Assembly: GCA_019058015.1 (NCBI GenBank)
Contig: JAHLWH010000106.1
Span: 1 to 17,605 of the forward strand
Origin: Promethearchaeota archaeon
Lineage (GTDB): Archaea; Asgardarchaeota; Lokiarchaeia; Sigyniarchaeales; SOKP01
DNA: 17,605 nt
Direction of reading: 5' to 3'
Position numbers and translations under genes: made by a program. The stretch's first letter is position 1, and each line of letters starts with the position of its first letter. The notes under the pieces were generated by a model, which saw only the letters and a list, made by a program, of their open reading frames with translations, was not told the origin of the DNA and made no database searches. This document shows positions 1-16,028 of the stretch, in pieces.

Positions 1-324
1 ACCACAACCAGCCACACAGTGCGTAACTATTGCTTCTCCATTTGAGCCGTGTTTATCTGTGATTTCAATATATTTCAATATTTGTGATTCAGTTGGTAAT
101 CCATAATCCGGGATATTGATGTGATAATAACGAAAATTACCCGGGATATCGTTGCGATTATTAAATTCGCTGCAGTTAATAATTACCTTTATGCCTTCTT
201 TTTTATAAATTTGAAAAACTACTCTATCAGGCCACCAAGAAACAGCCATTTTCCCCTCGATTATCCAATTAAAAGGGTCTGCTCTGTGTTTATTCTCTTC
301 CACTGACCAATACCATGGTCGCAA
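1..324 (-). CDS. Dual-specificity/protein-tyrosine phosphatase (CX5R family, DUSP23/Tk-PTP-like), 3' end outside the window
   Basis: Not in the ORF track. Manual translation of the minus strand from TTG at 324 (immediately after an in-frame TAA; alternative starts GTG 303, ATG 249) gives MRPWYWSVEENKHRADPFNWIIEGKMAVSWWPDRVVFQIYKKEGIKVIINCSE...YYHINIPDYGLPTESQILKYIEITDKHGSNGEAIVTHCVAGCG. It shows the FxWI N-terminal motif, the 'GIKVIINC' strand, the general-acid loop 'IPDYG' and the P-loop HCxAGxG(R), cut by the window edge just before the expected Arg. Confidence 0.88.
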   Translation of the reverse strand, partial: MRPWYWSVEENKHRADPFNWIIEGKMAVSWWPDRVVFQIYKKEGIKVIINCSEFNNRNDIPGNFRYYHINIPDYGLPTESQILKYIEITDKHGSNGEAIVTHCVAGCG

Positions 325-453
325 TTAAACATCCAATCCTTATTAAGACTTTATATTTTAAAATATAAAAAATTATAATTAATAAAAATATTAAATTATA
401 TGAGAAATAAAATATTTTAATTTAAAAATTAAATTACGTGATACGAGCTTACA

Positions 454-900
454 TTGATGCAAAACAATAAAAAATGGACATTTAAAATTGATTGGTTTAA
501 GATAGTTCAAATGCTTTCATTGAATTCTATCGAACAAATACCAGAATATAAAAAAGAAAAGGCTTTATTAAAATTAGAAAAAGAATTTGGCTCAGAAAAC
601 CTAGCTGAAATGGATCCTGAGTATTTAGAAGAATTAATTGGCGTTGAACTTCGAAAATTAATGCAGAAAGAATTAATTGACATTAAAAAAAAGGAAAAAG
701 AACTTAGAAAGAAAAGTAGAATAATTCCTCTAAAACGTGGAGGTATAATTAAAATTGACGCCTCCGATTTTAAAGATCTGAAAAATATGGAAGGGGATAT
801 TCAGGATATGCTAAAAGGTTTTCTAGATAAATACTTCAATCAGGAAGATGATGAATCAGATCCTGGAGAAGACGAAGACTCTACTGGCTACTACATCTAA
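454..900 (+). CDS. Hypothetical protein with a charged helical core, acidic C-terminal tail and terminal HbYX-like motif (..STGYYI)
   Basis: 148-aa ORF (TTG 454 or ATG 457) with normal coding composition. It has a K/E-rich predicted helix/coiled coil (LRKLMQKELIDIKKKEKELRKK) and the tail QEDDESDPGEDEDSTGYYI. No family recognised. Confidence 0.8.
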   Translation: MMQNNKKWTFKIDWFKIVQMLSLNSIEQIPEYKKEKALLKLEKEFGSENLAEMDPEYLEELIGVELRKLMQKELIDIKKKEKELRKKSRIIPLKRGGIIKIDASDFKDLKNMEGDIQDMLKGFLDKYFNQEDDESDPGEDEDSTGYYI

Positions 901-946
901 ATTTTTAATTTACTATTTCTTTGAAATCTGTTTTTTTTAATATTTC

Positions 947-3001
947 ATGGATGTGGAAAAAAAAATATCCAAAAAAATTCGGTTCGGTACCTGTACAAAA
1001 GATTGTTATGGATCATGTGTATTTCTAGGAGAATGGAGTGATAATGCTCCAGAATATAAGCTTATTTCCGCGGTTCCATTGAAGAATCATCCCTTTACTC
1101 AGGGTTTTTTCTGTCAAAAATTAAATCGACGTCAAGATTTAATATATCACCCTAAAAGATTGAAAAAACCATTGATCCGGACTGAACCTAAGGGAAAAAA
1201 TAGCTTTAATAGTATCCATCTTAAAGAGGCATTAAATATTGTAGCAGAAAAATTAAAAGATGTTAAAAAAAAATACAGTTCCACCGCAATCTTAGCAGCA
1301 TATTTTGCTGGAAATTCTGGATTAATATCGATGTATTCTCCATTAAGATTTTTTGGGAAACTTGGAGCCACTGTTACAAGCGGGGGGATTTGCAATGAAG
1401 GGGGATGTGCAGGACTTTCTAAGTTATTCGGGACATATTCAACAACCAATCCTTTTCAATTAATTAATAAAAATGCCCGTTTAATTGTTGTATGGGGGAG
1501 CAATCTTTCTGAAACAAATATTCATGCATATTTATTAGTTAAGAAAGCCCTTAGAGATAACGCGATATTGGTGGTGGTAGATTCTCGCCGTACCCGGATT
1601 GCTGAAGATGCTCATATTTTCCTTCAACCTTATCCTGGAACTGAACATTTATTATCTAAATTAATACTTTATCAATTAATCACCCAATATGCATATGATG
1701 AAAGCTTTTTGAAAGAATATGTTGATGGATATAACTCTATAATCTCGGAAGCTATTCAAGTTGATGAAAAAAAAATATTATCACAAATAGGGGTTGATAG
1801 TCAAACTTTACATGATTTTATAAATTTATTAATAGAACTCAAACACCATACAATTTTTAATATTGGCTACGGGGTCCAAAAAGACTTTTACGGCGGCAGA
1901 ATAGTGAAAGCTATTACTTTAATTCAAATCTTACTCGGCAATTTCGGAAAACCAGGCACAGGCTTGATTTATTCCCAAAGTGATTTTAATAAAGCATTTC
2001 TTCGCCCCCTCTTGGATTATATTACTAAAATTACCCCTGAATCGCTAATAAAAAAAATACCTATAATTAAATTAGGTTCCGCATTAGATTCTGGTGATTA
2101 TAAAATGTTATTTATTTATAATTTTAACCCCGCCAGTTCATTACCCAATCAAAATCAAGTAAGAAAAGCTTTATCCCAAAATGATATATTCATAGTAATG
2201 CAAGATCAGTTTTTAAATGAAACCACAAAATATGCTGATATCGTAATTCCAGCTAAATTTGATGTGGAATCCCATGATTTAGTTTCCCCTTATTATATTC
2301 CTGGTTTATCAATAAACCAAGCGGGTCCCTGTCCTTATCCCGATTGTATGTCAAATTATGAATTCTTTCAAAAGTTGGCTTATAAAATTGGCTGGGAAAA
2401 TTCACCCACTTTTCAAGACACCGATGAATTAATTCTCCAAGGTTGTTTAAATTTACTCCCAATTAAGATTCGAGAAGATATAAGAATTAAGGGATATCAT
2501 ATTCTTTTTGAAAAAAACTATGTTCCATTTAAAAATTTGTACTTTCCTACTCCTAATGGCCGAATTCAAGCACATGGACCACATTTTGAATTCGGAAAGC
2601 AAGAATTAGAGAGAAGATTAAATCGCAATAAAAATGAATTCTTGTTAATTACACCTTCTCATGTTTATTTTCTGCATTCGCAATTAGGTCAAATTCATCC
2701 CCGGTATTTGGAAGTATTTCATAAAATATTTCTAAATCAAGACGATATAAATGCCCTAGATTTAAAAGTGGGTAATGAAGTGAAAGTTTCGAATGAATAT
2801 GGTAGTTCGAAATATATTATATCTGAATCGAAAGTTGTAAAACCAGGTGTAGCACTGATATTTTCAGGTACCCCTTTTCCATTTTCTGGAAATTCAAATG
2901 TGAATCTTTTTACACCCGACAGACCAGAAGAATTAGGACTTTCTGGGGCTTATAATTCTGCACTGATAAAAATTTATAAAATTATATCAAATAATAAGTA
3001 A
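947..3001 (+). CDS. Molybdopterin (bis-MGD) oxidoreductase, DMSO reductase superfamily, YoaE/YyaE-like uncharacterised subfamily
   Basis: N-terminal Fe4S4 motif CTKDCYGSC...FFCQK; 'HPKRLKKPLIR'; 'IVVWGSN'; 'VVVDSRRTRIAEDAHIFLQPYPGTE'; 'FLNETTKYADIVIPA'; 'FPTPNGRI'; C-terminal molybdopterin dinucleotide-binding domain (LLITPSHVYFLHSQ...GNEVKVSNEYG). No Tat signal. Confidence 0.9.
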   Translation: MDVEKKISKKIRFGTCTKDCYGSCVFLGEWSDNAPEYKLISAVPLKNHPFTQGFFCQKLNRRQDLIYHPKRLKKPLIRTEPKGKNSFNSIHLKEALNIVAEKLKDVKKKYSSTAILAAYFAGNSGLISMYSPLRFFGKLGATVTSGGICNEGGCAGLSKLFGTYSTTNPFQLINKNARLIVVWGSNLSETNIHAYLLVKKALRDNAILVVVDSRRTRIAEDAHIFLQPYPGTEHLLSKLILYQLITQYAYDESFLKEYVDGYNSIISEAIQVDEKKILSQIGVDSQTLHDFINLLIELKHHTIFNIGYGVQKDFYGGRIVKAITLIQILLGNFGKPGTGLIYSQSDFNKAFLRPLLDYITKITPESLIKKIPIIKLGSALDSGDYKMLFIYNFNPASSLPNQNQVRKALSQNDIFIVMQDQFLNETTKYADIVIPAKFDVESHDLVSPYYIPGLSINQAGPCPYPDCMSNYEFFQKLAYKIGWENSPTFQDTDELILQGCLNLLPIKIREDIRIKGYHILFEKNYVPFKNLYFPTPNGRIQAHGPHFEFGKQELERRLNRNKNEFLLITPSHVYFLHSQLGQIHPRYLEVFHKIFLNQDDINALDLKVGNEVKVSNEYGSSKYIISESKVVKPGVALIFSGTPFPFSGNSNVNLFTPDRPEELGLSGAYNSALIKIYKIISNNK

Positions 3002-3011
3002 AAAAAAAAAT
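3000..3011 (-). terminator. Oligo-T (T12 on the minus strand) archaeal terminator candidate for the flavodoxin gene
   Basis: A run of 12 A on the + strand about 13 nt past the flavodoxin stop, where the two convergent genes meet. Confidence 0.45.
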
Positions 3012-3023
3012 ATTTGTGAAAGA

Positions 3024-3539
3024 TTAACTATTTAGAATCTTATTCATGATTTCCTTTGCGAAAATGCGAGCATTTTCTACCTCTGACGCATCTGGATGAC
3101 CAACTGTTACGTGCCGCATCTTTCCAAATTCTTGAAATTTAGGATCATCCATTTTTAAAAGCATATCTGCCACTTGTTGAGCAAGTACTCCCTGACAATT
3201 GAAAAAACCAACCAAATCCGAATCATCTGCACTAGCTTTACATTTAGCTAAAAGTGGTTCAAGGAATGGTGCACCTGGAGGTGAAGCATGGGTAATAAAA
3301 AGCGCAATTTTTCTTCCTTTTGTTTTACTTTCAATGAATTTTTTCGCTTTATCTGGTTGTCCGCTTTGATGAATAGGAAAGCCAATAAAGACAAAGTTAT
3401 AATCATCCAAATCTTCAATTTCCGCCAAGGGTTTAATTTCCTTTTCTTCTGAGATTGTTTCATATATTGCTTCAGCAATCTTTTTAGTATTTCCCGTTAA
3501 AGACATATACGTAACTAAAATTTTCATTTTTTTCCCCAT
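3024..3539 (-). CDS. Flavodoxin-like protein
   Basis: FMN phosphate-binding loop 'YMSLTGNTKKIAEAI', followed by 'FIGFPIH', 'IALFITHA', 'FNCQG' and 'GHPD' near the C-terminus. Confidence 0.9.
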   Translation of the reverse strand: MGKKMKILVTYMSLTGNTKKIAEAIYETISEEKEIKPLAEIEDLDDYNFVFIGFPIHQSGQPDKAKKFIESKTKGRKIALFITHASPPGAPFLEPLLAKCKASADDSDLVGFFNCQGVLAQQVADMLLKMDDPKFQEFGKMRHVTVGHPDASEVENARIFAKEIMNKILNS

Positions 3540-3680
3540 CTAAACTATATTAATATTATTGGATCTATAATTGATATTTACTATTTTTTTAATAAATTTT
3601 ATTGAAAAGAAAAAAGCTTAAATTAAATTAGAATAAAAATATTAAAAAATAAAAAAAAAGAATATTTCTTTTTCTCCTTT

Positions 3681-4007
3681 CTAAGGCCATTCGAGATGCA
3701 CAATAAATCGCCTTGCCATTGCACGATAATATTTTTCCTTGATTCCATACTTGTTGATGACAACATGAGGCTCAGTAACCAATTTTTTAGCCCGCAAATC
3801 ATCCAAATGACGTTTTATAGTTCCTGGATTCATTTTCAGTTCTCTCCTCAAGTCCATAATGTTTTTCTCTTCGTACATTAAAGCTCGGAGAATTACTTGT
3901 TTCTTCTCATGAAAAAGTACAGAAACAACATCGGGATCCGAGATTTTTTTTTCAAGAAGTATTTCTTTTTTAAAATCAATCTGCAAGGATGGCTTCTTTT
4001 TATTCAT
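3681..4007 (-). CDS. ArsR/HTH_20-like winged helix-turn-helix transcriptional regulator
   Basis: HTH segment 'KQVILRALMYEEKNIMDLRRELKMNPGTIKRHLDDLRAKKLV' plus wing 'INKYGIKEKYYRA'. Its start overlaps the upstream gene's stop by 8 nt (ATGAATAA, 4000-4007). Confidence 0.85.
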   Translation of the reverse strand: MNKKKPSLQIDFKKEILLEKKISDPDVVSVLFHEKKQVILRALMYEEKNIMDLRRELKMNPGTIKRHLDDLRAKKLVTEPHVVINKYGIKEKYYRAMARRFIVHLEWP

Positions 4008-4908
4008 CTTTTTTATTATTCACCAATTTCAATGAGTTGTAAATACGGGTACTAATTAAAGTCAACATTGGAATCGCTAATAAAAAGCAAAATACCGTCT
4101 GTGCTAAAAATTTGAAAAAAGGAAACATGATTTGTGAATAAGATTCATAAAAGTTTAGGTACCACATCCATCCCTTTTCAATTGCTATGAATCTCATCGA
4201 TATTTCAAGTATATCTAAAACAATCCATGGAAAATCAAAAATCATGAAAAATAGAAAAAGGGAACTGAATATACGTTTAGAATTAAGACGTAATATTTGC
4301 CAATTCTCGTAAAAAGCATTTTTGATTCCTCCTTGATAATTTAAACTAGGAAAGTTTTCTATTAACACAGATACCCATAAATACATAAAAATTCTGATCA
4401 TTACATTATACAACACCAAATATAAAATAATATAAAATCCTTGACTTGTTGGGTCAAATACTTCATATACCGTAAATAAACCTACGATTAATGAACAAAT
4501 AAAAGTTCCAAGTAAGAGCAGTAATGACAGCAAAATGTATTGCCACCAATATTCCCTAAAATAGTGAAAAAATCCTCGAAGTTCGGTGAATTGATCTCCA
4601 CCCGACATGATATCGTAAGAAAGACCAAATGAGCTTCCAAAAAATATTAATATTAAAAACATTCCAATTAAACTCCGGATCTGATAAAATGTATAATTCC
4701 TATCTAACTCTATATTAAAATAAAAGCTGAGTGAGAATTCCCACGGATAAGTTAAAAAGAGAAAAACTAAAATACTAATTATTTGAGCTCCTAAAAATAC
4801 CTTAAAGTTGGACTTATACAATCTCCAACTTAATCTGATATCAACCAACGCCTCGTGTATATAACTCTGTTTTTTCGAACCTTTTTTATTCATTAGATTA
4901 AAAATCAC
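4000..4908 (-). CDS. Polytopic membrane protein (about 6 TM), DUF975/GPDPase-membrane-domain-like architecture
   Basis: Several hydrophobic segments. 'LRGFFHYFREYWWQYILLSLL' and 'IKNAFYENWQILRLNSKRIFSSLFL' resemble the amphipathic repeats of that clan. The real start may be ATG 4893. Confidence 0.75.
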   Translation of the reverse strand: MIFNLMNKKGSKKQSYIHEALVDIRLSWRLYKSNFKVFLGAQIISILVFLFLTYPWEFSLSFYFNIELDRNYTFYQIRSLIGMFLILIFFGSSFGLSYDIMSGGDQFTELRGFFHYFREYWWQYILLSLLLLLGTFICSLIVGLFTVYEVFDPTSQGFYIILYLVLYNVMIRIFMYLWVSVLIENFPSLNYQGGIKNAFYENWQILRLNSKRIFSSLFLFFMIFDFPWIVLDILEISMRFIAIEKGWMWYLNFYESYSQIMFPFFKFLAQTVFCFLLAIPMLTLISTRIYNSLKLVNNKKDE

Positions 4909-4964
4909 TTTTTTTATTAATTTATACGTTTAATATCTTTACAAAATTATAATTGATGCAGATC

Positions 4965-5039
4965 TTTTATTTTGCAGTTTCTGCAAAATAAAAATAGTAT
5001 CAAAAATATTTAAAGATTTGCATTTGCAAAAAAAGCAAA
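4965..5039. promoter_or_regulatory. Putative operator/promoter: two TTTGC-N7-GCAAA boxes flanking a minus-strand TATA box
   Basis: Perfect inverted repeat TTTTATTTTGCAG-ttt-CTGCAAAATAAAA (4965-4993); second box TTTGC-AAAAAAA-GCAAA (5023-5039); TTTAAATA on the minus strand at 5014-5007. Confidence 0.65.
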
Positions 5040-5241
5040 ATGAGAATTTTTCATTTATTTTTAACTTTAAAAGATATTAAAAAATGAAGTTTTCTCCTTT
5101 TCCAAAAACACTCAAAAACTATATGATTTACTACAAAGAAAAGGATACGATATAACGTCTCATAAACTTACTAACCTCTATTCTTCCGGATACCAGCCTT
5201 CTAATGATTAAAATAAAAATAAAATAAAAATTTTTTAAAAA

Positions 5242-6636
5242 TTATTTCTTTTTCTTCTTGCCTCGTTCAAGTTTCTGAATTATTACCTTCTCTGCATGTA
5301 TTTTGCAGTTTATAAGAGTTACCTTGAAACCACCAATTCCACCAGCTCCAGGAATCATCATCGTCTGTGTCCCCGCCGGAATCATTGCTCCTTCTTCTTC
5401 CCATTCTTCCTCCTCTTCTTCTTCCCAACGTTCGACAATCGGGTGGTTTTTCTCTCTGAGCCAGTCCCTTAATTTACTTAATTCATCAACTTCTTTCTCC
5501 GTTGCCATCAAATCGCGCCATTTCTCAGGTAAAAGGTCGTACATACGATCTTTTACGCTACTTACCATCCAAACACATCTTGAGAATCCCCCGTCGACCT
5601 GCTGAAACTTCGGTGAGGCTAAGTATTGTACCGATATGCCATTGAATCCTGGAAGCTGTTTTCCACCACCAGTTTGGTTTGCCATCGCGCTGAAGGGAAG
5701 TCCATTAATTGCGGGACCGTCGAATCCACGATCAACAATTCCAAATCCATCAACTTCGGGAATGTAGAAATATACCGCTTCAAAACAACCGCAACTCGTA
5801 TGCGGATTAGTCATCGAAGAATAGATCCAAATCCTATCGACTTCACCTAAAGACCTTTTTTTTAATGTTTCATTTACTCCCGTATATTCTCCGGCAAAAT
5901 CATCTAAACATTCGCCGGGTGGAATTTCGAAGATAGGTCCCTTCGGATCCACTTTCGCCGCAGCTCTTGCATCAAACCAACTGATTGAACCACATGAGCT
6001 GGTTCTATCTGGCGTTATGCAACAACAATGGCTCGGTGCGAACGACTGGCAGAGGACACAACCGTAAAACATATCAACATCCTCATCATGTAAGCCACGT
6101 GCTCGTTCGTCTCTTTGATCATAAATTTTCAATGCTTCTTCATGTGGTTTAACTATTGCATCCATCGTTGTGTAAAATGTCACTTGTGCTTGTTTTACAA
6201 TTGGTAGTTCAGCTTTATATAAACGGATGAGAATTGTTCCTAAAAACTTCAAGGAATTGAATCCATCCTGGTAAGCTTTTTTAGACAATCGCAACCAGTT
6301 TGTATATCTTTGATTGAGATGCATAATCCCATTAACGAAATTACAGAATTCATGTATTCTTCTTTCAAGAACGGCTTCAATATCTACCTCTAATTCTGGA
6401 CCAGCGGTTTCAACAAGAATTCCAATAGGATATGATTTTCCTTCTTCCATATCTGAAAGGTCGGGTCCAACTATTTTTACATCTCCATCTTTTATCTCTT
6501 TTGGCTCTTTAACTCTAACGAGTTCAAATTTCTTTTCAACTTTTGGACCTCCCAGTTCAACATACATTTGCTTAGCTCTAATTCTTTCACCTTCATATAC
6601 GGGTCCAACATCAACGGGTAAATCACTAAAACTCAT
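5242..6636 (-). CDS. cdhC: Acetyl-CoA decarbonylase/synthase (ACDS) complex beta subunit, acetyl-CoA synthase
   Basis: Archaeal N-terminus 'PVDVGPVYEGERIR...ELGGP'; 'ERRIHEFCNFVNGIMHLNQR'; A-cluster ligands 'FYGCVLCQSFAPSH...PDRTSSCGSISW' and 'PHTSCGCFE'; acidic linker and conserved C-terminal 'KVTLINCKIHAEKVII'. Confidence 0.97.
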   Translation of the reverse strand: MSFSDLPVDVGPVYEGERIRAKQMYVELGGPKVEKKFELVRVKEPKEIKDGDVKIVGPDLSDMEEGKSYPIGILVETAGPELEVDIEAVLERRIHEFCNFVNGIMHLNQRYTNWLRLSKKAYQDGFNSLKFLGTILIRLYKAELPIVKQAQVTFYTTMDAIVKPHEEALKIYDQRDERARGLHDEDVDMFYGCVLCQSFAPSHCCCITPDRTSSCGSISWFDARAAAKVDPKGPIFEIPPGECLDDFAGEYTGVNETLKKRSLGEVDRIWIYSSMTNPHTSCGCFEAVYFYIPEVDGFGIVDRGFDGPAINGLPFSAMANQTGGGKQLPGFNGISVQYLASPKFQQVDGGFSRCVWMVSSVKDRMYDLLPEKWRDLMATEKEVDELSKLRDWLREKNHPIVERWEEEEEEEWEEEGAMIPAGTQTMMIPGAGGIGGFKVTLINCKIHAEKVIIQKLERGKKKKK

Positions 6637-6640
6637 CTTT

Positions 6641-6654
6641 CTTTACCTCTTTTT
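6641..6654 (-). promoter_or_regulatory. Shine-Dalgarno region of cdhC (AAAAAGAGGTAAAG)
   Basis: GAGGT lies 8 nt upstream of the cdhC ATG. The identical 14-mer precedes the 11416..11715 gene (11721-11734). Confidence 0.7.
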
Positions 6655-6689
6655 ATTTTTTTCAATATAATGATTTTTAATTAATTAAT

Positions 6690-7220
6690 TTACAATTTTA
6701 CGGTTAATTTTTCTAAAAAATCTTTCCATTCTTCGTCGTTTAAATTAGCTAGGGAAAATCTCGCATTTGGATGGGAAAATTTATCTAAGTCAATTGTTCT
6801 TAAATAAGTAGTGAAATTTTTCAGATTACTTAAGGTTTGACTCACATAAAAAACGATATGTCCTCCAAAAATAGCCATGTCATATTGACCGTTACCATCA
6901 ATTCCTTTCCAGTTTGGGTCTGAGAGTCTTTGCGTGATATTGATTAGAGACATCATTGTAACTTTGTCCTTCCCGAGTTTTTCAGATACGTATTTATATG
7001 AATGTCCAGTAGCAACGACCGGTACATCTAATTTTTTAACAATTTCGATGAAGTAATCCGCGAGTTTTTTACCATCGAGTTCCCAAGTTAATGATTCTGC
7101 ACCAATTACGAAAAGCTTACGCTTTCCTTGCACTTTTAAAATATTCGCCATAGTCTCCGGTTCGAATACTGTAACCCCCATATCGGGGTTTATATTTGGT
7201 TTTTGATAGGGTTTAACCAT
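6690..7220 (-). CDS. cdhB: ACDS complex epsilon subunit (CO dehydrogenase small subunit)
   Basis: 'LSDPNWKGIDGNGQYDMAIFGGHIVFYVSQTLSNLKNF...LRTIDLDKFSHPNARFSLANL' matches the CdhB signature. It is 176 aa and directly upstream of cdhC. Confidence 0.93.
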   Translation of the reverse strand: MVKPYQKPNINPDMGVTVFEPETMANILKVQGKRKLFVIGAESLTWELDGKKLADYFIEIVKKLDVPVVATGHSYKYVSEKLGKDKVTMMSLINITQRLSDPNWKGIDGNGQYDMAIFGGHIVFYVSQTLSNLKNFTTYLRTIDLDKFSHPNARFSLANLNDEEWKDFLEKLTVKL

Positions 7221-7618
7221 TTTTGCATTATCTCAGTAAATCATTTAAAATATATCAAATCGATTGTTTAAAATCAATTGTCAATTGTTTAAAAAAATTG
7301 TTTTTATGCACATTAAAGACATCGAAATTTGAATTTTCAATATAAAGAATTAATTACATAGATCCTTTTTTCTTATAGTATTGGAATCCTTAGATAAAAC
7401 GGGAAAATTTAATTTCAATTGATTCAGCCAAATTTTCCTTTTAGATCTTTTTTTGTATTCATCTTATTAAATCGTTTTTAATCACTAGGGCTGATCTTTA
7501 TATACCTACTTTTATCTTTTATATAATAGGGTTAAATGAGAAAAAGAGTAATAAATCCAATTTCAATAAGGATTGGGAGGTCTAAAGAGAGAAAATAGAG
7601 AAAGTATATTCTGAGGAT

Positions 7619-7696
7619 ATGCCTCATTATGAAATTTGTTGCTGTGTAGTTATTATATTGGTAATAATCGTTTTAATATTGGTTTTCTTTGGATAA
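7619..7696 (+). CDS. Candidate 25-aa single-pass membrane micropeptide MPHYEICCCVVIILVIIVLILVFFG
   Basis: ATG 7619 to TAA 7694-7696, below the ORF-track cutoff. Three consecutive Cys precede 15 uninterrupted V/I/L/F residues. The leader is purine-rich, with GAGGA unusually close to the ATG. It lies in an otherwise empty 655-bp gap. Confidence 0.5.
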   Translation: MPHYEICCCVVIILVIIVLILVFFG

Positions 7697-7875
7697 TATC
7701 TTAAATTGGCCAAATACGAGCCCAGCAAATAATAATAATATTTAAATACCTTTTTTAAATATTTTATTGCCACTAATTTTAAAATACTTATCATATTACT
7801 TTCTCTTAGTGATTTTAGTAAAAAAGAGAAAAAAAAAAGAAGTGATTAGCCATTTGTGAATTTAAAGTATTAAAA

Positions 7876-8166
7876 ATGGAAGGGAATGATTTAAAACAAG
7901 TTGCGGAGGAAATTTTGGTTTTCAAATATGATGAGGATACCGGAACTTCTGCATTTTATGGAATTCTTGGGGAGAAAGTTAAATTAAATAATGCATTAGT
8001 TTTGGAAGTTAATATGATACCCAAAAGGCATGATATCGTTGTAATTCAATCTCCTTTGGTTTCTAATTTTGTTTCAATTGTAAAAAAGATAAATAAAGGT
8101 TCGGTTACAAAGGATCAAATAGAACATTTTCAAAGTAAACTAGAGGAAATTAAAGCGAAATTGTAA
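7876..8166 (+). CDS. Hypothetical protein (96 aa, predicted alpha/beta, soluble)
   Basis: Clean ATG-TAA ORF with protein-like composition in its own intergenic slot; no family recognised. Confidence 0.7.
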   Translation: MEGNDLKQVAEEILVFKYDEDTGTSAFYGILGEKVKLNNALVLEVNMIPKRHDIVVIQSPLVSNFVSIVKKINKGSVTKDQIEHFQSKLEEIKAKL

Positions 8167-8271
8167 TTTATAAAATATTTCGCACTTCTACTTTTAAACA
8201 CTCATTAATTTAATAAAAAAAAGATTGGATTAGTAATATCAAGCACTTAATCATATTATTTATTTAGATTC

Positions 8272-10029
8272 TCAGATCGAAGTTGATAGGATTGATGCTA
8301 AAATCCAGCTAAATAGGAATGCATTGAGAAATGCGCCCACGTAATAGCGGGAAGTGATATGATAGATCCACACGGTAATAATTACTGCAATAGCAAACAT
8401 TGGAGTGAACATGTAGAAGAATAGGAAAACATAACCAATCATACCAGGTAAGACAACAATACCAGCGATGTATCCCACACCGAATTGAATAGCAATGAGA
8501 ACGGCATAAAACAAACATTTGAAAAATATTGCTTTCAAGCTACAAGATAATTGGGCATACATCCATTTTTTTTTAATTTCGGTTCGCATGGCTCCCATCA
8601 ACCACATACCTTCAACTAAAAAGTATGGAATGAAACAAATTAGGTAAATTGGAGCAATTAATGCTCGGCTTGGGGTCAAATCATTAAGTATAGGCAGGAA
8701 ACAGCGAAAATCGAGTGCTAAAATAACATCTAGCAAGAGAGTCCAGGCATATAACCAGAATATTACCAATAGTGATAATAAGACACTTTTTATGATAATT
8801 CGTAAAACTTCGTGAGATTCACCTTGTTTTTCCTTAAATTGGATATTGTGTCTTATTTTAGGCCGAAAACGAAGGATTAGATAAAGAATTCCTGCAGATA
8901 TAAGCCCTACTCCTAGGAAGTATGTAAGGATTGAAGTTCCATAACTCTGAGGGATTACTATAATACTTCCTATAAGTAGACCAATCACCATTAATGGAAT
9001 ATATAAACCAAATCCTATACCTCCATAGAGTAAACCCAACCCAAAATATGACTTGGTACTTAAAATATTTTTATCTTCAGATAACTTTTTTTTATTCTTA
9101 AGATCCTTGAAAAATGGAAGATCAATTAAAATTGCAAGAAGGGGTAAAATTGACAAAAATACTCCAATTGAAGCGATTAAACCACCAATCATAAAGATTG
9201 GGTAAAATAGATTTTCTTTCGGTAGCCAATACTCATCTTCAGCACCTCCTTTTAGGCTATTTTTCATCCATTCAACAGTTTCACTAATTACAATAGGATC
9301 TATAGTTACAAAGAGATGATTTGTTCTGGGGAGAATTATTTTTCGTGCAGTTCCACTGCTGAAATCACCATATAAAGTATTCAACTCGATTGAAGATACA
9401 TTAAAGGAAATTTCTAGTGAAGAGAGATTAGTAGGATAAGATGATAATTCATCGAACTGACCTGTAGCAACGAGCATGTTATGTGGATAGGTTGCATTAG
9501 CTGTTAATCTGACACCAGCACCTACAAGTACGAGTGAATTGACTATGATTGTTGAATCTTCGATTGCGCTCCAGGAGATTCCACCACCCATGCTATGTCC
9601 AATAAGACCAATGGAAGAACTATCCACATAAGGCAAATTTGCTATATATTCAAGTGCTGCGGTACCACTTCCAGTCCCAGGTTCAGAGTTGCCATGTCTA
9701 TTTGCATCGATTGTAAGTACAACGAAACCGCGTCGTGCCAATTCTATTCCAAACGCCATAAGCCATTCTTTACTCTGTAAAGAACCATGAATAACAACCA
9801 CACCAGGTAAAGGGTTAGATCCTGAAGCATATGTCGGTACTTGAAGGGTGCTATGGATCCAAGATCCATCTTCCGTAGTTTGAAAATCAACCTCCAAAAC
9901 ATTGACATTTCCAAAATTACTCTGTATGATACCGGCAATAGTTGTTCCAATCAAAAGAACGGCAATACTAAAAATTAGAACTATATATCGTGGTCTGATT
10001 TCTATTTTTTTTCTAATATTTTCTAACAT
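8272..10029 (-). CDS. Membrane-anchored alpha/beta-fold serine hydrolase with a C-terminal multi-TM domain
   Basis: N-terminal TM anchor; oxyanion 'VVVIHG'; 'ELARRGFVVLTIDANRHGNS'; nucleophile elbow 'GHSMGG'; acid 'GQFDE'; His 'TNHLF'; then about 8 hydrophobic helices. AGGT RBS-like motif upstream. Confidence 0.9.
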   Translation of the reverse strand: MLENIRKKIEIRPRYIVLIFSIAVLLIGTTIAGIIQSNFGNVNVLEVDFQTTEDGSWIHSTLQVPTYASGSNPLPGVVVIHGSLQSKEWLMAFGIELARRGFVVLTIDANRHGNSEPGTGSGTAALEYIANLPYVDSSSIGLIGHSMGGGISWSAIEDSTIIVNSLVLVGAGVRLTANATYPHNMLVATGQFDELSSYPTNLSSLEISFNVSSIELNTLYGDFSSGTARKIILPRTNHLFVTIDPIVISETVEWMKNSLKGGAEDEYWLPKENLFYPIFMIGGLIASIGVFLSILPLLAILIDLPFFKDLKNKKKLSEDKNILSTKSYFGLGLLYGGIGFGLYIPLMVIGLLIGSIIVIPQSYGTSILTYFLGVGLISAGILYLILRFRPKIRHNIQFKEKQGESHEVLRIIIKSVLLSLLVIFWLYAWTLLLDVILALDFRCFLPILNDLTPSRALIAPIYLICFIPYFLVEGMWLMGAMRTEIKKKWMYAQLSCSLKAIFFKCLFYAVLIAIQFGVGYIAGIVVLPGMIGYVFLFFYMFTPMFAIAVIITVWIYHITSRYYVGAFLNAFLFSWILASILSTSI

Positions 10030-10277
10030 TTTTTTTACCTAAAAAGTAACTTTATAAAAATATTAGCTTAAGTAATTTAAAAAAATATAGTTAGGTTTTA
10101 AAAATATAAACATTTCAAAATTCAACTAATTAGTTATAAATATCAATTGTAATTGTTGAAAATTTAAAATTATCTACTTTATTAAATTCATTTTCAAGAA
10201 ATTTAATATACTTATTAAAAAAATCAAAAATCAATAATGATATCCCATTTAAATATTGTATTAATTTTTATTTATTT

Positions 10278-11231
10278 GTGGAGTTCTACGGAGTTAATAT
10301 CACAAATTTAATTGAAAAATATGAAGGAAAATCAATAACAGAGATCTTCCCAAACAACAAAATTAAAAATAATTCAATGGGTTCTTTTTTAAATATTTAC
10401 TGGAAACAGAACTTACCATTTAATTCAAAAATCTCTTCTACTAGAAAACGATTGCTTAGAAATTTAAAAACAGTTCATCAAATTGGGGAAAAAACCGAAT
10501 CATATCTAAAAAGACGTGGTGTCAATAATCTATTTGATTTAATTGGACACTGTGGGTATCAAAAAAATGCAATGAAACTTATTAATATGATTAAGGAAAA
10601 AAATTACCAACTCCTTGAGAAAAACTATTATATCAAAGATATTGATCTATTATTTTGCTTTAAATTGGAAGATTTACTTTTTCTAGATATAGAAAGCACT
10701 GGATTGTACGGATCGAGTGTTTTTCTCATAGGTTTGGGGTATTTTAAAAATGGAATATTCAAAATCAAACAATATTTTGCAAGGATTTTAGATGATGAAA
10801 TAGCAATATTTGAGAGGTTAAAGCATTTTTTTAAAAAATTTAAATGTTTTGTGTCATATAACGGGAAATCGTTTGATATTCCTGTCTTAGCCGACAGATT
10901 TTTATATTTCTTTGACGAAAATCCAATGATATCTGAAGATGATGACCCTTATGAACAAAATAACACATTATATCACCATATCGATTTATACCATAATAGT
11001 AGGCGATTGTGGAAGGGAAAATATATTAATTATAAATTATCAACAATCGAGCAAGAAGTTTTAGAATTAAAAAGGGATGATGATGTTCCGGGGGCTTATA
11101 TGGGGCATTTCTATGAAATGTATTCTCAAAATCCGGAAAAATATAGTGGATTAATTCAAGCTTGTATTGAGCATAATTATAATGATGTGAAAAATCTGCC
11201 CCTAATATTAGATGTAATGCTTAAATCTTAA
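10278..11231 (+). CDS. RNase H-like (YprB/MrfB, RNase_H_2) DEDD exonuclease with an N-terminal HhH-like motif
   Basis: ExoI 'LFLDIESTGL'; ExoII 'VSYNGKSFDIP'; 'HHIDLYH..RRLW...KLSTIEQEVL..KRDDDVPG'; ExoIII 'IEHNYNDV'; HhH-like 'HQIGEKTESYLKRRGV'. GTG start. Confidence 0.9.
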   Translation: MEFYGVNITNLIEKYEGKSITEIFPNNKIKNNSMGSFLNIYWKQNLPFNSKISSTRKRLLRNLKTVHQIGEKTESYLKRRGVNNLFDLIGHCGYQKNAMKLINMIKEKNYQLLEKNYYIKDIDLLFCFKLEDLLFLDIESTGLYGSSVFLIGLGYFKNGIFKIKQYFARILDDEIAIFERLKHFFKKFKCFVSYNGKSFDIPVLADRFLYFFDENPMISEDDDPYEQNNTLYHHIDLYHNSRRLWKGKYINYKLSTIEQEVLELKRDDDVPGAYMGHFYEMYSQNPEKYSGLIQACIEHNYNDVKNLPLILDVMLKS

Positions 11232-11415
11232 TAGTGTTAAGACCTTTTTTTTATTATCAATTTAGATTTCAATAATTATTAGTTAGAATATCTTCCTCTA
11301 ATATAAAATGTAATGCTTAAATTTTTTTTAAAAAAAAGGAATTTGGAATTATGAGTATATTTTAAAATTTTTGTTTTTTTATGTTTTAAACTAAATATTT
11401 TATAAATTATCTAGT

Positions 11416-11715
11416 TCAACCCATTACTTTAAACGCATCTTTCATTCCCAATAAAGTTTCTATTCTCAATGAAAACCCTTCAATATCCCAGAATGGCTGA
11501 AATGTTTTTGTTATATACATCAAGGTTTCATCTCCCTTATCCTTCTCCGCCATTATAAGATTATATCCCTTAAATCCACGCTCACTATCGGGACAAGTAA
11601 AAATCTGCCATTTCTTTATAAAAGAAGGCATTGGACCTTTACTTGCTTTAAGAAATAGCTCCATTATCTCTTTCGCCTTATTAGTTGGATACCATTGAGT
11701 TACCATAATAATCAT
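11416..11715 (-). CDS. Small hypothetical protein, probable dimeric alpha+beta barrel (DUF3303/GYD-like)
   Basis: 99 aa with a strong GAGGT RBS. The beta-alpha-beta-beta-alpha-beta pattern (MIIMVTQWYP...GYNLIMAE...IEGFSLRIETLL) suggests a ferredoxin-like fold; the family assignment is tentative. Confidence 0.7.
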   Translation of the reverse strand: MIIMVTQWYPTNKAKEIMELFLKASKGPMPSFIKKWQIFTCPDSERGFKGYNLIMAEKDKGDETLMYITKTFQPFWDIEGFSLRIETLLGMKDAFKVMG

Positions 11716-11882
11716 TCATACTTTACCTCTTTTTTAATTAATTTTAATAAAATTGGATTTTAAAACGAGTGATCATTGAATTAAGATATATATAAAAATT
11801 TCCTTTTTTATAGAAAAATGAAAATTTAATAATCAAAAAATAATTTGAAATAAATTTTAAGAATCATTAGTCAGAATATATT

Positions 11883-13076
11883 ATGGAGATTCCGCACAAC
11901 AAGTATGATATGACCCAAAAGGCATTAGATGGAGTAAAATCAAAAATCGATGCCATGGAAGAATCTGCTTCAAATAAATACATTTTTCTTGGATTTGATG
12001 GTTATATAGATTCTCTCTATTCTTTAGTTGCAAATCGAGAAGATGTTAGTAATTGGACGTTAATGAATTCAATGACGCAGATGGCTGAGCGTATTATTAA
12101 TTCAGCCGGAAGTTCAACTAATATTGAGCGGGTTTTGAAACGAAAAGTTGCAGGAGGTTTTGCACCAAATACAGGAAAAGCATTATGGAATTTGGGACTT
12201 CGAGTTTTCTTAGTAGCTGCGATGGGTCTTCCAAAGGCTAAGGAGATCTTCAAAGTTTATCCAGAATTCGTGGAAGATATATCTATAAACGAACCTGGAC
12301 GAACTGTAGGTTTAGAATTTAATGACGGTAAGGTTATGATTACCGATTTCCACAACATTTATGATATCTCCTGGGATAAAATTATCAAAAAAATAAAAAT
12401 CCCCAAGTTAATTGATAGGTTTAATATTTGCGATGGATATGGTTTTGGGCATTGGTCATTATTGCTAGAAATGAATAATATCTGGATGAAAATCAAGACT
12501 GAAATATTTCCATCTGTCTCAAATCTAAAAGAAAAAATCTTTTTTATTGATTTAGCAGATCTCAGGAAACGGAAAGATGAAGATATAAAAAAAATGATCG
12601 ATTTATTAATAGAACTTGAAGATCAAGTCCAAATATGTCTTAGTTTAAATGATAGAGAAGTGATTGATATTTCAAGAGTAATTAATGGAGTTGATAAGAT
12701 TGATCCTAATCAGCCTAATTTTGAAGGCTATATTGAAGCGGGAAAAAAAATCAATGATATCTTGAATTTTTCTTATTTGATCATTCATGAACCACATTTT
12801 GCCACTATTACAAGGAAAAAAAACCATTACTGGGTATCTCAAGCTTTTACAAGCACACCAAAATTTAGTACTGGTGCAGGAGATCATTTTAACGGAGCAA
12901 CATTAGCTGGATTGGTTCTAGATTTAAATCCAGCTGAAGCTATATTATTTGGGAATATTAACACCGCAATATTCGTGAGAACCGGAGAATCCCCAAGATT
13001 TAAACATATAAAGGCATTTATGAAAAATTATATGGATTATTTAAAAAATGAGAATCTAGAATTTAAAATGAAATAA
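11883..13076 (+). CDS. PfkB/ribokinase-superfamily carbohydrate kinase, divergent
   Basis: 'AGGFAPNTGKALWNLG' (GG switch), 'LSLNDREV' (NxxE) and 'STGAGDHFNG' (anion hole with catalytic Asp). Confidence 0.85.
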   Translation: MEIPHNKYDMTQKALDGVKSKIDAMEESASNKYIFLGFDGYIDSLYSLVANREDVSNWTLMNSMTQMAERIINSAGSSTNIERVLKRKVAGGFAPNTGKALWNLGLRVFLVAAMGLPKAKEIFKVYPEFVEDISINEPGRTVGLEFNDGKVMITDFHNIYDISWDKIIKKIKIPKLIDRFNICDGYGFGHWSLLLEMNNIWMKIKTEIFPSVSNLKEKIFFIDLADLRKRKDEDIKKMIDLLIELEDQVQICLSLNDREVIDISRVINGVDKIDPNQPNFEGYIEAGKKINDILNFSYLIIHEPHFATITRKKNHYWVSQAFTSTPKFSTGAGDHFNGATLAGLVLDLNPAEAILFGNINTAIFVRTGESPRFKHIKAFMKNYMDYLKNENLEFKMK

Positions 13077-13117
13077 AATAAAATTAATTAAAATTTCAAT
13101 TAATTAGTGATATAATT

Positions 13118-14803
13118 TTGAAAATAATGGAATCCTTACGTAAAAAATTGTATGAAGAGAAATGGAATTTTAAAAACAGAGACGCTCTTATTGACAAATT
13201 GCAGAAAGAATCTTACGATATTATTATTATCGGTGGAGGCATCACAGGAGCTGGAGTTGCAAGAGAAGCTGCCCTAAGGGGCTTAAAAGTTGCTTTAATT
13301 GATAAACAAGATTTTGCTGCAGGAACTTCTTCTAGAAGCACTAAAATGGCTCATGGCGGGATTAGATATTTGGAAAGTTATGAATTTAGATTAGTTCGCG
13401 AAGCAACTACGGAAAGAAATTGGTTAATGGCCCATCTTCCTCATTTAATTAGACCAATTCGATTAATACCAACTGCATGGAAGGGTGGAAAAGATAATGT
13501 GTCTCGAGTTCATTTAGGTGTGCGGATTTACGACTTTTTAAGCAATTCATTCTCTAAATTTAAAACTTATAAAAAACATGAAATTTTAGAACCGGAAGAA
13601 ATCATAGAGCTCGAACCTGCTATAAAAAAGGAGGGTCTTTTAGGAGGCGCTTCATATTATGATACATTTGTGGACGATGCAAGATTAGTATTGGAATCTA
13701 TTAAGGAAGCAGTTATAAGAGGAACTGACGCACTTAACTATGTTGAATTTAAATCTTTTATTAAGGAAAACGGAAAAATTGTTGGAATTAAATGCTTGGA
13801 TCTTGAAAAAAATAATAAATTTGAAATAAAAGGAAAACAAATCGTAAATGCAACCGGAATATGGACCGATACTATCGTTGAAAATTATCCAGATGATATT
13901 CCAAAACCCGTTATTAGACCTACAAAAGGAGTCCATTTGGTATACCCTATTGACAAAATAAAAGTAAATAATGCAATGCCTATTCGGTCAATTGATGATA
14001 ATCGCGGGATGTTTTTAATGCGTCGAGGAAATATCGCTTTAATAGGAACTACAGATACAGATTATAAAGAAGACCTTGATATTCCATACTGTACTAAGGA
14101 GGATGCAGATTATGTAATTAGAGCTGTGAAAAATATATTTCCTCAATCGGAATTAGGATATGAAAATCTTATTTCTACATTCGCAGGAATTCGACCTTTA
14201 GTGATGCAAAAAGGAAAATCTGAAAGTGAACTTTCAAGAGATCATTTGATTTTTTGGTCCAATGATGGTTTACTTACAATCACTGGCGGTAAATTAACTA
14301 CTAATAGAAAAATGGCTGAAGATTTATTTAAAGAACTTATAAAACATAAAGTTTTTAGCGGCATTAGAAGAAAGAAGAATTTCTCCAAACAAAAATTCAT
14401 TATCGGCTTAGAAAAGTCTGAATGGCAAAAATTTATAGAAAATAATAATCCAAAATTAGATCAAGATATTTTAGACCACCTTTATCAACAATATGGACAT
14501 GGTGCCATGAAAATAATAGAAATTTGTCAAAAAGATAATGCCTTAAAAGAGAGACTCTTACCTGAACATCCATTTATTACCGGAGAAATTGTGTATTCGC
14601 TTAAAAACGAACAGATTCCTCATTTAATTGATGTCCTTTGCAGACGAACCGAAATGGCAATCTTAATACACCATAAAAAACAGAAAATCGTTGCCGAAAA
14701 AGTCGCCAAAATTATGGCTAAAGAATATGGATGGAATGAAGAGAAAAAAAGTGAGGAGATCAAAATCCATCTTGACCACATCAAAAAAACCATCTTTTTT
14801 TAA
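13118..14803 (+). CDS. glpD: FAD-dependent glycerol-3-phosphate dehydrogenase/oxidase (GlpD/GlpA family)
   Basis: 'YDIIIIGGGITGAGVAREAALRGLKVALIDKQDFAAGTSSRSTKMAHGGIRYLE', 'DDARL', 'VNATGIWTD', 'KGVHLV', 'IGTTDTDY', 'FAGIRPL', 'SRDH', 'ITGGKLTT', and C-terminal DAO_C 'DVLCRRT'. The start may be ATG 13127. Confidence 0.92.
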   Translation: MKIMESLRKKLYEEKWNFKNRDALIDKLQKESYDIIIIGGGITGAGVAREAALRGLKVALIDKQDFAAGTSSRSTKMAHGGIRYLESYEFRLVREATTERNWLMAHLPHLIRPIRLIPTAWKGGKDNVSRVHLGVRIYDFLSNSFSKFKTYKKHEILEPEEIIELEPAIKKEGLLGGASYYDTFVDDARLVLESIKEAVIRGTDALNYVEFKSFIKENGKIVGIKCLDLEKNNKFEIKGKQIVNATGIWTDTIVENYPDDIPKPVIRPTKGVHLVYPIDKIKVNNAMPIRSIDDNRGMFLMRRGNIALIGTTDTDYKEDLDIPYCTKEDADYVIRAVKNIFPQSELGYENLISTFAGIRPLVMQKGKSESELSRDHLIFWSNDGLLTITGGKLTTNRKMAEDLFKELIKHKVFSGIRRKKNFSKQKFIIGLEKSEWQKFIENNNPKLDQDILDHLYQQYGHGAMKIIEICQKDNALKERLLPEHPFITGEIVYSLKNEQIPHLIDVLCRRTEMAILIHHKKQKIVAEKVAKIMAKEYGWNEEKKSEEIKIHLDHIKKTIFF

Positions 14804-14899
14804 CTTTTCATTGTGACAAAAATCGGACGCAATAAATATTTAAAATCAAGAATTCATCTAATACTTAAAATTATAATATTTTAGAAAATGTGATGTTTA

Positions 14900-15577
14900 A
14901 TGATTTTTCAAATTTGGGATGTCTTTCAAGATTTTTTTGACTGGATTGCAGAATCAGGCGCAATCATGTTGATCTTAGCGGGTTTGATAGCAATTACATG
15001 GTTTGGCTATGAATCTAAGCGACGACGTAGCATTACTAAAAGGAAAGTAGATGAGTATGAGTTTAATGTTACTAAATTTTTAAGAATTTTATCATACCTA
15101 GGAATAGTAATCGGAGTTTTTTGTATTTTTTCTGGAGCAGTTAGCCTGCTTCGAAATCTTCCTCCAAGTTTTGCTTATCGTGATAATGTAGCCAATGAAG
15201 TAAATCATTTTACAGCAATAAGTTTGATTGTAATTGGCTTGATTTGTTTCTTAAAGCCAATAAACGATTTACCTTGGTCTGGCATAATTGGTTTAATTGT
15301 TGGTAGCATAATTACATTCATAATAGCAATTTCTATTCCAGAACAACTTGCGGAAGTAATTGCGGTTTTTATTGACCCGCGTTGGGTGTTAGGTATATTA
15401 TTTGTTTTAATAGTAGCTATCGTTGCCTTAACTGTAAAATTCTACATTAAAGGGTTGATGGCAATATCGAAAGTGCTTTCTTGGCCTCCAATAGCGTTGA
15501 TCCTAATGTTTTACTGCTTCATACAGGGTGTAGCTTTGTGGGGATTTGGATTTTCAGTAGTTCCAAACTTTTTTTAG
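14900..15577 (+). CDS. Hypothetical polytopic membrane protein (about 6 TM)
   Basis: Six or more hydrophobic stretches, a basic loop 'SKRRRSITKRK' after TM1, and a GTGATG RBS-like motif upstream. Confidence 0.8.
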   Translation: MIFQIWDVFQDFFDWIAESGAIMLILAGLIAITWFGYESKRRRSITKRKVDEYEFNVTKFLRILSYLGIVIGVFCIFSGAVSLLRNLPPSFAYRDNVANEVNHFTAISLIVIGLICFLKPINDLPWSGIIGLIVGSIITFIIAISIPEQLAEVIAVFIDPRWVLGILFVLIVAIVALTVKFYIKGLMAISKVLSWPPIALILMFYCFIQGVALWGFGFSVVPNFF

Positions 15578-15669
15578 TCATAAAATCAAAATTTATTTTT
15601 TCTTTTTTCCTATTTATAATGGTTTAAGTTTAATTTATCTTCTATTTAAATTCCGAATTCAATATATTT

Positions 15670-15933
15670 TTAAAATTCCATATCCAGGTCCCCCTTTCCT
15701 ACATAATCTTCAAGACCTTCAATCTCTACATCAATTATTTCTTCGTCTGATCCCTGTTTTTTCTTGGAATTTGATGTTTCACAAGAAAATTTATTTCTCT
15801 CATTCTCATCTCTCAATCTGAATTCTTCGATTAGGGGGCCATAAGGGCACCATCCGAGTCTATGGCAAGGTTTAATTACATTTTCATCATTAATTTTTTC
15901 AGTATTTAACCATTCACCAACCATTGAAATCAA
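15670..15933 (-). CDS. Small hypothetical protein with a PCxxLxWCPYGP Cys motif and acidic tail; possibly truncated or chimeric
   Basis: 'KPCHRLGWCPYGPLIEEF...FSCET' followed by a low-complexity acidic tail. The likely start is ATG 15924. Confidence 0.6.
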   Translation of the reverse strand: MISMVGEWLNTEKINDENVIKPCHRLGWCPYGPLIEEFRLRDENERNKFSCETSNSKKKQGSDEEIIDVEIEGLEDYVGKGDLDMEF

Positions 15934-16028
15934 CTTTTTTTGTTTTATCTATTTTATTATCAAAATGGAAGTATTTAAATAAAGAAGAAAATTCCAGTAA
16001 TTTTTCTTTTAATTTATTTATAAAGAAT

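Follow-up and report, generated by a model that had tools for sequence, protein, structure and literature searches.

A small protein family of Lokiarchaeia with a conserved HbYX-type C-terminus and a possible role at the 20S proteasome

Do Asgard archaea have a small, ATP-independent protein that docks on the 20S proteasome by its C-terminus? The question arises from a gene near the start of a 17,605-nucleotide stretch of DNA from a Promethearchaeota archaeon of the class Lokiarchaeia (contig JAHLWH010000106.1, positions 1 to 17,605; we refer to this whole stretch as the window). The gene encodes a protein of 147 amino acids (aa) that ends in an acidic linker, QEDDESDPGEDEDS, followed by T-G-Y-Y-I. 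The last three residues are of the hydrophobic-Tyr-X (HbYX) type. (Proteins that dock on the proteasome with an HbYX motif form a functional class, not a homologous family.) A first-pass annotation considered the protein an orphan from a probable Asgard archaeon and a candidate for a new activator or adaptor of the 20S proteasome. Asgard archaea are the closest known relatives of eukaryotes, and the regulation of their 20S proteasomes has been little studied. To our knowledge, PbaA and PbaB, both of them PAC2 proteins, are essentially the only ATP-independent partners described for archaeal proteasomes.

Our results partly support the proteasome interpretation. Judging by the sequence and by analogy, we put at about 45% the probability that the 147-aa protein is a lineage-restricted, ATP-independent cofactor of the 20S proteasome whose tail docks on the alpha ring; it would work like Bpa/PafE or PbaB, yet would be unrelated to them.

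Conservation and distribution of the protein

We compared the ends of 47 distinct homologues from genomes, namely 45 distinct proteins (from 50 genomes in 15 genera) and two proteins from a sister family, f3. (Five fragments that are truncated or broken in frame, P0011, P0022, P0023, P0025, and P0029, were left out of the counts.) All 47 have tyrosine as the penultimate residue, and nothing follows the final residue. The third residue from the end is always hydrophobic (tyrosine in 42 homologues, phenylalanine in 4, and methionine in 1), and the last residue is isoleucine in 45, methionine in 1, and leucine in 1. Among just the 45 proteins from the 50 genomes, the final two residues are Tyr-Ile in every case, preceded by tyrosine (42), phenylalanine (2), or methionine (1). 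The best 30 loci all end in Y-Y-I, as TGYYI (27) or THYYI (3). The linker before this end varies in both length and sequence, with gaps in the alignments. A penultimate tyrosine that is conserved at the exact C-terminus behind a variable linker is what the first-pass annotation suggested looking for, and it is what we found, apart from one homologue from the databases that is described with the arguments against docking.

Within the main family, E-D-x-T-G is nearly fixed as well, and the conserved block comprises eight residues, E-D-x-T-G-Y-Y-I. Of 135 family genomes, 79 contain the exact pattern D-x-T-G-Y-Y-I-stop, each of them a single time, and a reversed control gave 0 matches. When we compared 10 of these 79 places by eye, all 10 were at the gene for the 147-aa protein. 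Among more distant homologues, the one from genome G008 ends ...PSRSMYI, and the two f3 proteins end ...PGASFYM and ...PGASFYL. Since the end is kept in these distant members, the invariant of the wider family is a hydrophobic residue, a tyrosine, and a final residue with a free carboxylate, which is the definition of HbYX. The homologue from G157 has only 89 aa, consisting of the N-terminal domain and a short linker, and it ends ...ATQSYYI. From this minimal form, we take the unit of domain plus tail to be the conserved core of the family. (The other homologues are 147-162 aa long.)

Two comparisons bear on this conservation. First, across the genes, all synonymous codons for T, G, Y, and I are used (ACN, GGN, TAY, and ATH) while the residues are fixed, which implies selection on the peptide. 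Second, we looked at 11 other orthologue groups taken from these loci, and in only 2 of them are the final two residues kept at 90% or more: CdhC, which has a poly-Lys end, and a 95-aa protein that ends in LFGL. An HbYX end by itself is less unusual. In the window genome, 36 of 3,192 open reading frames (ORFs; at least 80 aa from ATG, filtered for overlaps) have a hydrophobic-Tyr-X end, so a single such end is a 1-in-90 event. A comparably acidic stretch before the end is found in 9 of the ORFs, and only the ORF of the 147-aa protein has both. Going by the sequences, it is conservation, not the lone HbYX end, that lifts the tail above chance.

The architecture of the protein was modelled in two AlphaFold2 runs, with alignments of 21 and 37 rows, which agree with each other. 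The helical core that had been described from the sequence is present: residues 6-87 (the N-domain) are helical, with a predicted local distance difference test (pLDDT) score of about 90. In the homologue alignment, W7 and W13 of this domain are invariant and D12 is nearly so. Residues 88-127 are poorly defined (pLDDT about 50), with a hairpin over IPLKxGGIIKID, and the last 20 residues are unmodelled (pLDDT below 50 in both runs). The deeper alignment gave no better model of residues 88-147. The protein has the sequence features of the HbYX class, namely a hydrophobic residue at the third position from the C-terminus, a conserved penultimate tyrosine, and a motif at the extreme end of a flexible segment, where the flexibility is predicted from the models.

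The protein does not belong to a described family. For the 147-aa protein, Pfam gave no family above its cut-off (just Cnn_1N at E = 0.068, which is below the cut-off for that family), NCBIfam gave only noise (E ≤ 0.1), Foldseek gave 0 matches in the PDB at E ≤ 0.001 (the best had E = 2.7), and the ESM Atlas gave no usable match. The first-pass annotation had noted the lack of Walker A and B motifs and had set the protein apart from both AAA+ ATPases and PAC2 proteins. We agree: no AAA or P-loop family matches in Pfam, the translation contains no P-loop (GxxxxGK[ST]), and there is no match to the PAC2 family (PF09754). We also found no paper about the family when we searched the literature for HbYX motifs in Asgard archaea, for the tail pentapeptide, or for archaeal ATP-independent HbYX activators.

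One apparent relationship, to the ribosomal protein uS19, was rejected. HMMER profile matches to the N-terminal region of eukaryotic uS19 chains reached only E = 0.02-0.05, and hhalign against 17 Asgard uS19 sequences gave a probability of 0.2% (E = 0.27). Because hhalign does not uphold the similarity, we take it to be compositional. Separately, the uS19 proteins of the window's own family (L115, L119, and L121; G000:C156:2528-2782) have an extra N-terminal acidic extension of 30-40 residues, and they are 164-173 aa long, versus 131-137 aa in most other Asgard genomes sampled.

The gene is restricted to a single lineage. A word-indexed search of 5.8 billion proteins gave 13 matches, all of which are unnamed or labelled as "hypothetical protein" and are from Lokiarchaeota or Promethearchaeota, in line with the suspected Asgard origin. 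When 1.84 billion cluster representatives were scanned exhaustively with HMMER, there were only 17 matches at E ≤ 0.001. When we searched whole genomes with a profile, we found the gene in 123 of the 161 genomes of the class. (The class search scored families f1 to f7, where f1 is the window's own Lokiarchaeial family and f2, f3, and f4 are sister families.) These include 120 of 134 genomes from f1, nearly always with one copy (as in the window genome itself), the only genome from f2, and 1 of 4 genomes from f4. A broader profile had matches in 127 of 400 genomes of the phylum and added 2 of 14 genomes from f3. The relatives from the three sister families are weak ones. Describing the protein as an orphan was thus an overstatement.

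Some matches need a different explanation. Two strong ones from the broader profile, L152 (G362:C267, E = 1e-60) and L153 (G257:C363, E = 3e-31), are on contigs of 2,786 and 3,298 bases, in bins that were assigned to families f12 and f27 and are rated as 7-9% contaminated. These look like mis-binned Lokiarchaeial contigs rather than true occurrences in f12 or f27. No fused or longer forms were seen among proteins of 285-2,000 aa, which is weak evidence. The sole fusion that we saw, in 1 of the 135 family genomes, is a 249-aa ORF in G045 (L154:769-1518, minus strand, contig C137) that joins a Cdc48 N-domain to a copy of the middle module of the 147-aa protein. The N-domain matches PF02359 (E = 5e-14) and shares 35-43% identity with the N-terminal part of Cdc48 proteins of about 750 aa. 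Over 38 residues (...GEAIKIDPRDFRDLDPN...), the copy of the module has 61% identity, and it does not have the YYI end. This ORF could be a recent fusion or an assembly chimera.

Possible docking on the 20S proteasome

HbYX-bearing partners of the proteasome are present in the same genomes as the 147-aa protein. The window genome encodes two alpha and three beta subunits of the 20S proteasome, a Cdc48 that ends in LYG, a PAN that ends in LYS, and three PAC2 proteins (from separate genes), one of which ends in ...KSLYI (G000:C81:7002-7808, minus strand). Orthologues of this PAC2 protein end in K-S/T-L-Y-I at 30 of 30 family loci (L175-L204) and at 3 of 3 loci from f3 (L205-L207), so a bona fide HbYX family in this clade already uses Tyr-Ile with a free carboxylate. 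In G000, the remaining two PAC2 paralogues have QLFM and SYFR as their ends and lack a penultimate tyrosine.

The pocket on the proteasome side is conserved as well. In HbYX docking, a pocket lysine pairs with the carboxylate of the tail. In alpha1, residues P18, G20, E26, and K67 are invariant in 24 of 24 sequences, and they match Pro17, Gly19, Glu25, and Lys66 of Thermoplasma (the offset of one comes from the alignment to 1pma). A complex prediction with three copies of alpha1 and residues 101-147 of the 147-aa protein gave scores of 0.03 and 0.00 relative to a mark of 0.32, which, by the rule that the tool sets, counts neither for nor against binding; the input, a partial ring made from one of the two alpha paralogues with a disordered partner of 47 residues, was ill suited to such a prediction.

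We infer docking on the 20S proteasome, and all of its downstream effects, and the mechanism might be as follows. The free C-terminal hydrophobic-Tyr-Ile, at the end of a flexible acidic tether of 15-30 residues, would insert in the pocket between two alpha subunits. The carboxylate of the tail would pair with the pocket lysine and the tyrosines would touch residues of the Pro17 turn, with contacts as for the HbYX tails of PAN, Cdc48, PbaB, Bpa/PafE, and PA200. The helical N-domain, perhaps together with the GGIIKID strand motif, may hold cargo, a partner, or further copies of the protein itself, and the protein would tether something to the proteasome. Occupancy of the pocket might open the gate or might compete with PAN or Cdc48.

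This proposal has precedents in several unrelated systems. Bpa/PafE (Rv3780), an actinobacterial ATP-independent activator, is likewise a small helical protein and not an ATPase, and it has a variable segment and an end of the form G-x-Y-aliphatic (G-Q-Y-L versus G-Y-Y-I). In Bpa, the fully conserved GQYL is preceded by 15-20 variable residues, and Bpa was discovered through a search for conserved C-terminal HbYX motifs (PMC4254994); the 147-aa protein also came to attention by its conserved HbYX end. The two differ in their hosts (bacterial versus archaeal) and in the linker, which is strongly acidic in the 147-aa protein. Also, mycobacterial Mpa, Bpa, and Cpa have GQYL in common, while the extended motif of the 147-aa protein is not common to the proteasomal ATPases. 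The Bpa/PafE protomer is a four-helix bundle that forms a dodecameric ring, and we found no sign of homology to it: no Bpa/PafE chain was matched at E ≤ 10 in a profile search of PDB sequences, and Foldseek gave no match at E ≤ 0.001 in the PDB.

PbaB and PbaA (PF09754) are archaeal and ATP-independent, and they carry HbYX on a disordered or "tentacle" segment. The last 19-23 residues of PbaB are disordered, and PbaB attaches to mature 20S proteasomes via its HbYX motif and activates degradation (PMC3605417). The PAC2 orthologue of this clade, with its L-Y-I end, has the same final two residues as the 147-aa protein. However, the 147-aa protein has no PAC2 domain, is about half the size, and is all-helical instead of alpha-beta-alpha. 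For a single docking tail that ends in Tyr-Tyr-X, the precedent is PA200/Blm10. The YYA of PA200 fits in between alpha5 and alpha6, where Gly19 and Glu25, close to Pro17, form bonds with the two tyrosines, and one YYA in one pocket partly opens the gate (PMC7077846). PA200/Blm10 is a eukaryotic dome of HEAT repeats of about 200 kDa, whereas the 147-aa protein is archaeal, has a mass of 17 kDa, and carries its tail on a long tether. PAN and Cdc48/VAT resemble the 147-aa protein in having HbYX ends in the same genome, but the 147-aa protein has no AAA domain, Walker motifs, OB domain, or Cdc48-type N-domain. Finally, Pbp11 (Q9UZY3) is also a small, lineage-restricted archaeal protein that is tied to the proteasome system. 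This Thermococcales protein associates with PAN-20S, and its disordered N-terminus binds PAN and tRNA (PMC9540759). The parts of that paper on which we drew mention no HbYX tail for Pbp11, and we compared the two proteins by description only. Because the features of PAC2, AAA, and Bpa proteins are lacking, we consider the 147-aa protein to represent an unrelated family that carries an HbYX-type end.

If the protein does dock on the proteasome, it would be a third, unrelated family that uses the HbYX plug, and docking tails would have been invented repeatedly (Bpa in actinobacteria, PA200 in eukaryotes, and this family in Lokiarchaeia). A 17-kDa protein, or just an 8-mer peptide, would then be a simple handle on gate control and substrate delivery in Asgard proteasomes. 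A more specific idea, which we think is decidedly unlikely to be correct, is that the protein is a new Asgard-specific adaptor: the N-domain and GGIIKID would capture a client and the tail would plug the client onto the 20S gate, as an ATP-independent shuttle from the Asgard ubiquitin-like system. GGIIKID, which is flanked by acidic residues, resembles a beta-strand motif of the SUMO-interaction type, so an Asgard ubiquitin-like modifier, or conjugates of one, might be the client. Such an adaptor would have no homologue among eukaryotic or other archaeal regulators.

Evidence against docking, and other explanations for the tail

Several observations weigh against docking on the proteasome. The database homologue P0026 (31% identity) ends in ...SYHL, with histidine replacing the penultimate tyrosine. 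The gene has no match in 14 of 134 genomes from f1, some of which are rated as 99-100% complete, so it is dispensable or diverging in some lineages. In the window genome, 33 of the 36 ORFs with HbYX ends are outside of known proteasome families; when we scanned 7 of those 33 with Pfam, the 6 with a family match were ordinary enzymes. An HbYX motif does not guarantee docking either, as PbaA from P. furiosus has the motif but did not bind the mature 20S proteasome (PMC3605417). At the family loci, the syntenic neighbours of the gene are functionally mixed, and none of them is proteasomal, AAA, or ubiquitin-like. PAC2 proteins are present in 81 of 81 genomes sampled from the class, so there is no obvious gap to fill. 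This last result also led us to reject the idea that the 147-aa protein substitutes for a missing PAC2 protein. In the sister family f3, we saw no covariation of the last residue between the 147-aa protein and the PAC2 orthologue (FYM or FYL versus LYI).

The remaining difficulty is that the conserved block, E-D-x-T-G-Y-Y-I, reaches beyond what HbYX requires. In the 135 family genomes, the extended motif is in no second gene, and other proteasome partners do not have it. It might be adapted to a different receptor. The tail might be a ligand for another module that grips C-termini (the carboxylate clamp of a TPR protein, the PDZ domain of a protease, a PUB/PUL-like domain, or an AAA N-domain), in which case the protein would be an adaptor that is unrelated to the alpha ring of the 20S proteasome. 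Acidic stretches with hydrophobic or aromatic ends are the format of the EEVD, SSB-tip, and P-stalk tails, and Y-Y-I is compatible with a class II PDZ ligand. The window also contains coding sequence for TPR proteins (17241-17603). The one-off chimera in G045, which joins the middle module to a Cdc48 N-domain, would also fit, but it is too isolated to carry any weight. We nevertheless lean against another receptor and consider it possible but somewhat doubtful. We identified no candidate receptor, and no receptor gene is syntenic. Furthermore, E-D-x-T-G decays in distant homologues (...PSRSMYI, ...ATQSYYI, and ...PGASFYM/L) while hydrophobic-Tyr-X stays, which points to an HbYX signature rather than a longer recognition peptide. 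If the tail does bind something else, it would be a new C-terminal peptide signal in the Lokiarchaeia that have it.

Alternatively, the conserved C-terminus might have a structural role, without any docking: it could pack on the protein's own helical domain or drive homo-oligomerisation. Aromatic-rich ends are often buried. In PbaA/Ta1441, the C-terminal segment packs against the core (PMC3605417). However, both AlphaFold2 runs gave the last 20 residues pLDDT below 50, with no confidence based on contacts; a highly acidic linker of variable length would be unusual if the end had to reach a fixed site in cis; and the chain ends exactly after X, which points to recognition of the carboxylate. 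A structural role thus seems unlikely.

The protein could also be a regulated substrate of the proteasome, with its acidic disordered end and hydrophobic-Tyr-Ile acting as a C-terminal degron, or self-delivery signal, that controls how much of a regulator (the N-domain) is present. ATP-independent degradation by the 20S proteasome starts readily at a disordered terminus, and the models predict a folded domain with a long unstructured tail. We think that this is quite improbable as a separate explanation, and it overlaps with the favoured reading, as docking of the tail on the proteasome or its ATPases would be needed here too. Lastly, it is very improbable that the protein is a precursor in which the N-domain serves as the leader and the C-terminal Tyr-Tyr-Ile undergoes chemical modification (as for ribosomally synthesized and post-translationally modified peptides, or mycofactocin). 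C-terminal cores that contain tyrosine are known for PqqA and MftA, and the syntenic block repeatedly includes a radical-SAM gene at a distance of 6-8 kb. However, the protein from that gene bears an HMPTM zinc-ribbon domain, the gene has the opposite orientation, is separated by unrelated genes, and does not occur in the neighbourhood seen in the window, and a 147-aa protein with a well-folded domain of 80 residues and a polyacidic spacer is unlike known precursors.

The gene and its surroundings

The ORF at 454-900 (plus strand) is real, but the first-pass length of 148 aa needs a small correction. The ORF opens with TTG at 454, one codon upstream of ATG at 457. Because the orthologues begin with MQNNK, ATG 457 is the likely start. 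The other end reads as had been described, with GGC TAC TAC ATC TAA (G-Y-Y-I-stop) at bases 886-900, preceded by the acidic linker at 841-882. The features of the gene are listed in Table 1.

Table 1. Features of the gene for the 147-aa protein and its flanks, in coordinates of the window.
Feature	Coordinates	Strand	Basis
AT-rich intergenic region upstream of the gene, presumed archaeal promoter	325..456	+	Sequence, ORF map
Coding sequence of the 147-aa protein, stop included	457..900	+	ORF call and translation, orthologue starts
All-helical N-terminal domain, residues 6-87	472..717	+	AlphaFold2, pLDDT about 90, both runs
Conserved linear motif I-I-P-L-K-x-G-G-I-I-K-I-D, residues 89-101	721..759	+	Conservation; pLDDT about 50, short hairpin
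Short amphipathic helix before the linker, residues 115-127	799..837	+	DSSP on both AlphaFold2 models; low confidence
Acidic, disordered-looking tether QEDDESDPGEDEDS, residues 129-142	841..882	+	pLDDT below 50
C-terminal T-G-Y-Y-I; the final three residues are the HbYX-type end, with free carboxylate	883..897	+	Sequence, homologues
TAA stop straight after T-G-Y-Y-I; every homologue read has its stop at the same place relative to the motif	898..900	+	
Eight consecutive T after the stop and before the next gene (ATG 947), possible archaeal oligo-T terminator	931..938	+	Sequence, inference

The oligo-T run after the stop suggests, from the sequence, that the gene is monocistronic and stands alone. 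Upstream, a gene for a dual-specificity phosphatase (1-324, minus strand) is divergent from it, and the downstream gene (947-3001) is an unrelated molybdopterin oxidoreductase. A scan of the window for bacterial-type promoters and terminators found no terminator and was uninformative, and an Rfam scan of the window found nothing. The 20 sequencing runs that we considered for signs of expression are all DNA metagenomes, with no RNA run among them. Within the family, the syntenic neighbours are an alpha/beta hydrolase, a PHP-like protein, a metallophosphoesterase, a Rho_N-domain protein, TetR, NAPRTase, a radical-SAM enzyme, and CdhC/CdhB.

We also noted some other proteins with unusual sequences or ends. 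Elsewhere in G000 there are two ORFs of 263 aa (G000:C155:7835-8626 and G000:C243:24013-24804, both on the plus strand) with long polyacidic stretches and then aromatic tips (...EEDSFF and ...EWSKFEF). The one on C155 lies 450 bases downstream of a gene for a proteasome beta subunit (C155:6675-7385). In the window, CdhC (5242-6636, minus strand) is the acetyl-CoA synthase/carbon monoxide dehydrogenase beta subunit and CdhB (6690-7220, minus strand) is the epsilon subunit. Near its C-terminus, CdhC has an acidic stretch, EEEEEEEWEEEG, and then a poly-Lys end that is conserved among its relatives. Another gene in the window (8272-10029, minus strand) encodes a 585-aa protein with an N-terminal alpha/beta-hydrolase domain (S33- or PETase-like) and a long, hydrophobic, multi-pass C-terminal half. 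Finally, the 95-aa protein mentioned above (L046:674-961, minus strand, and its orthologues) has no match in Pfam and adjoins the HMPTM-type radical-SAM gene, and its C-terminus is hydrophobic and conserved (...L-[LF]-F-G-L) at 9 of 10 loci.

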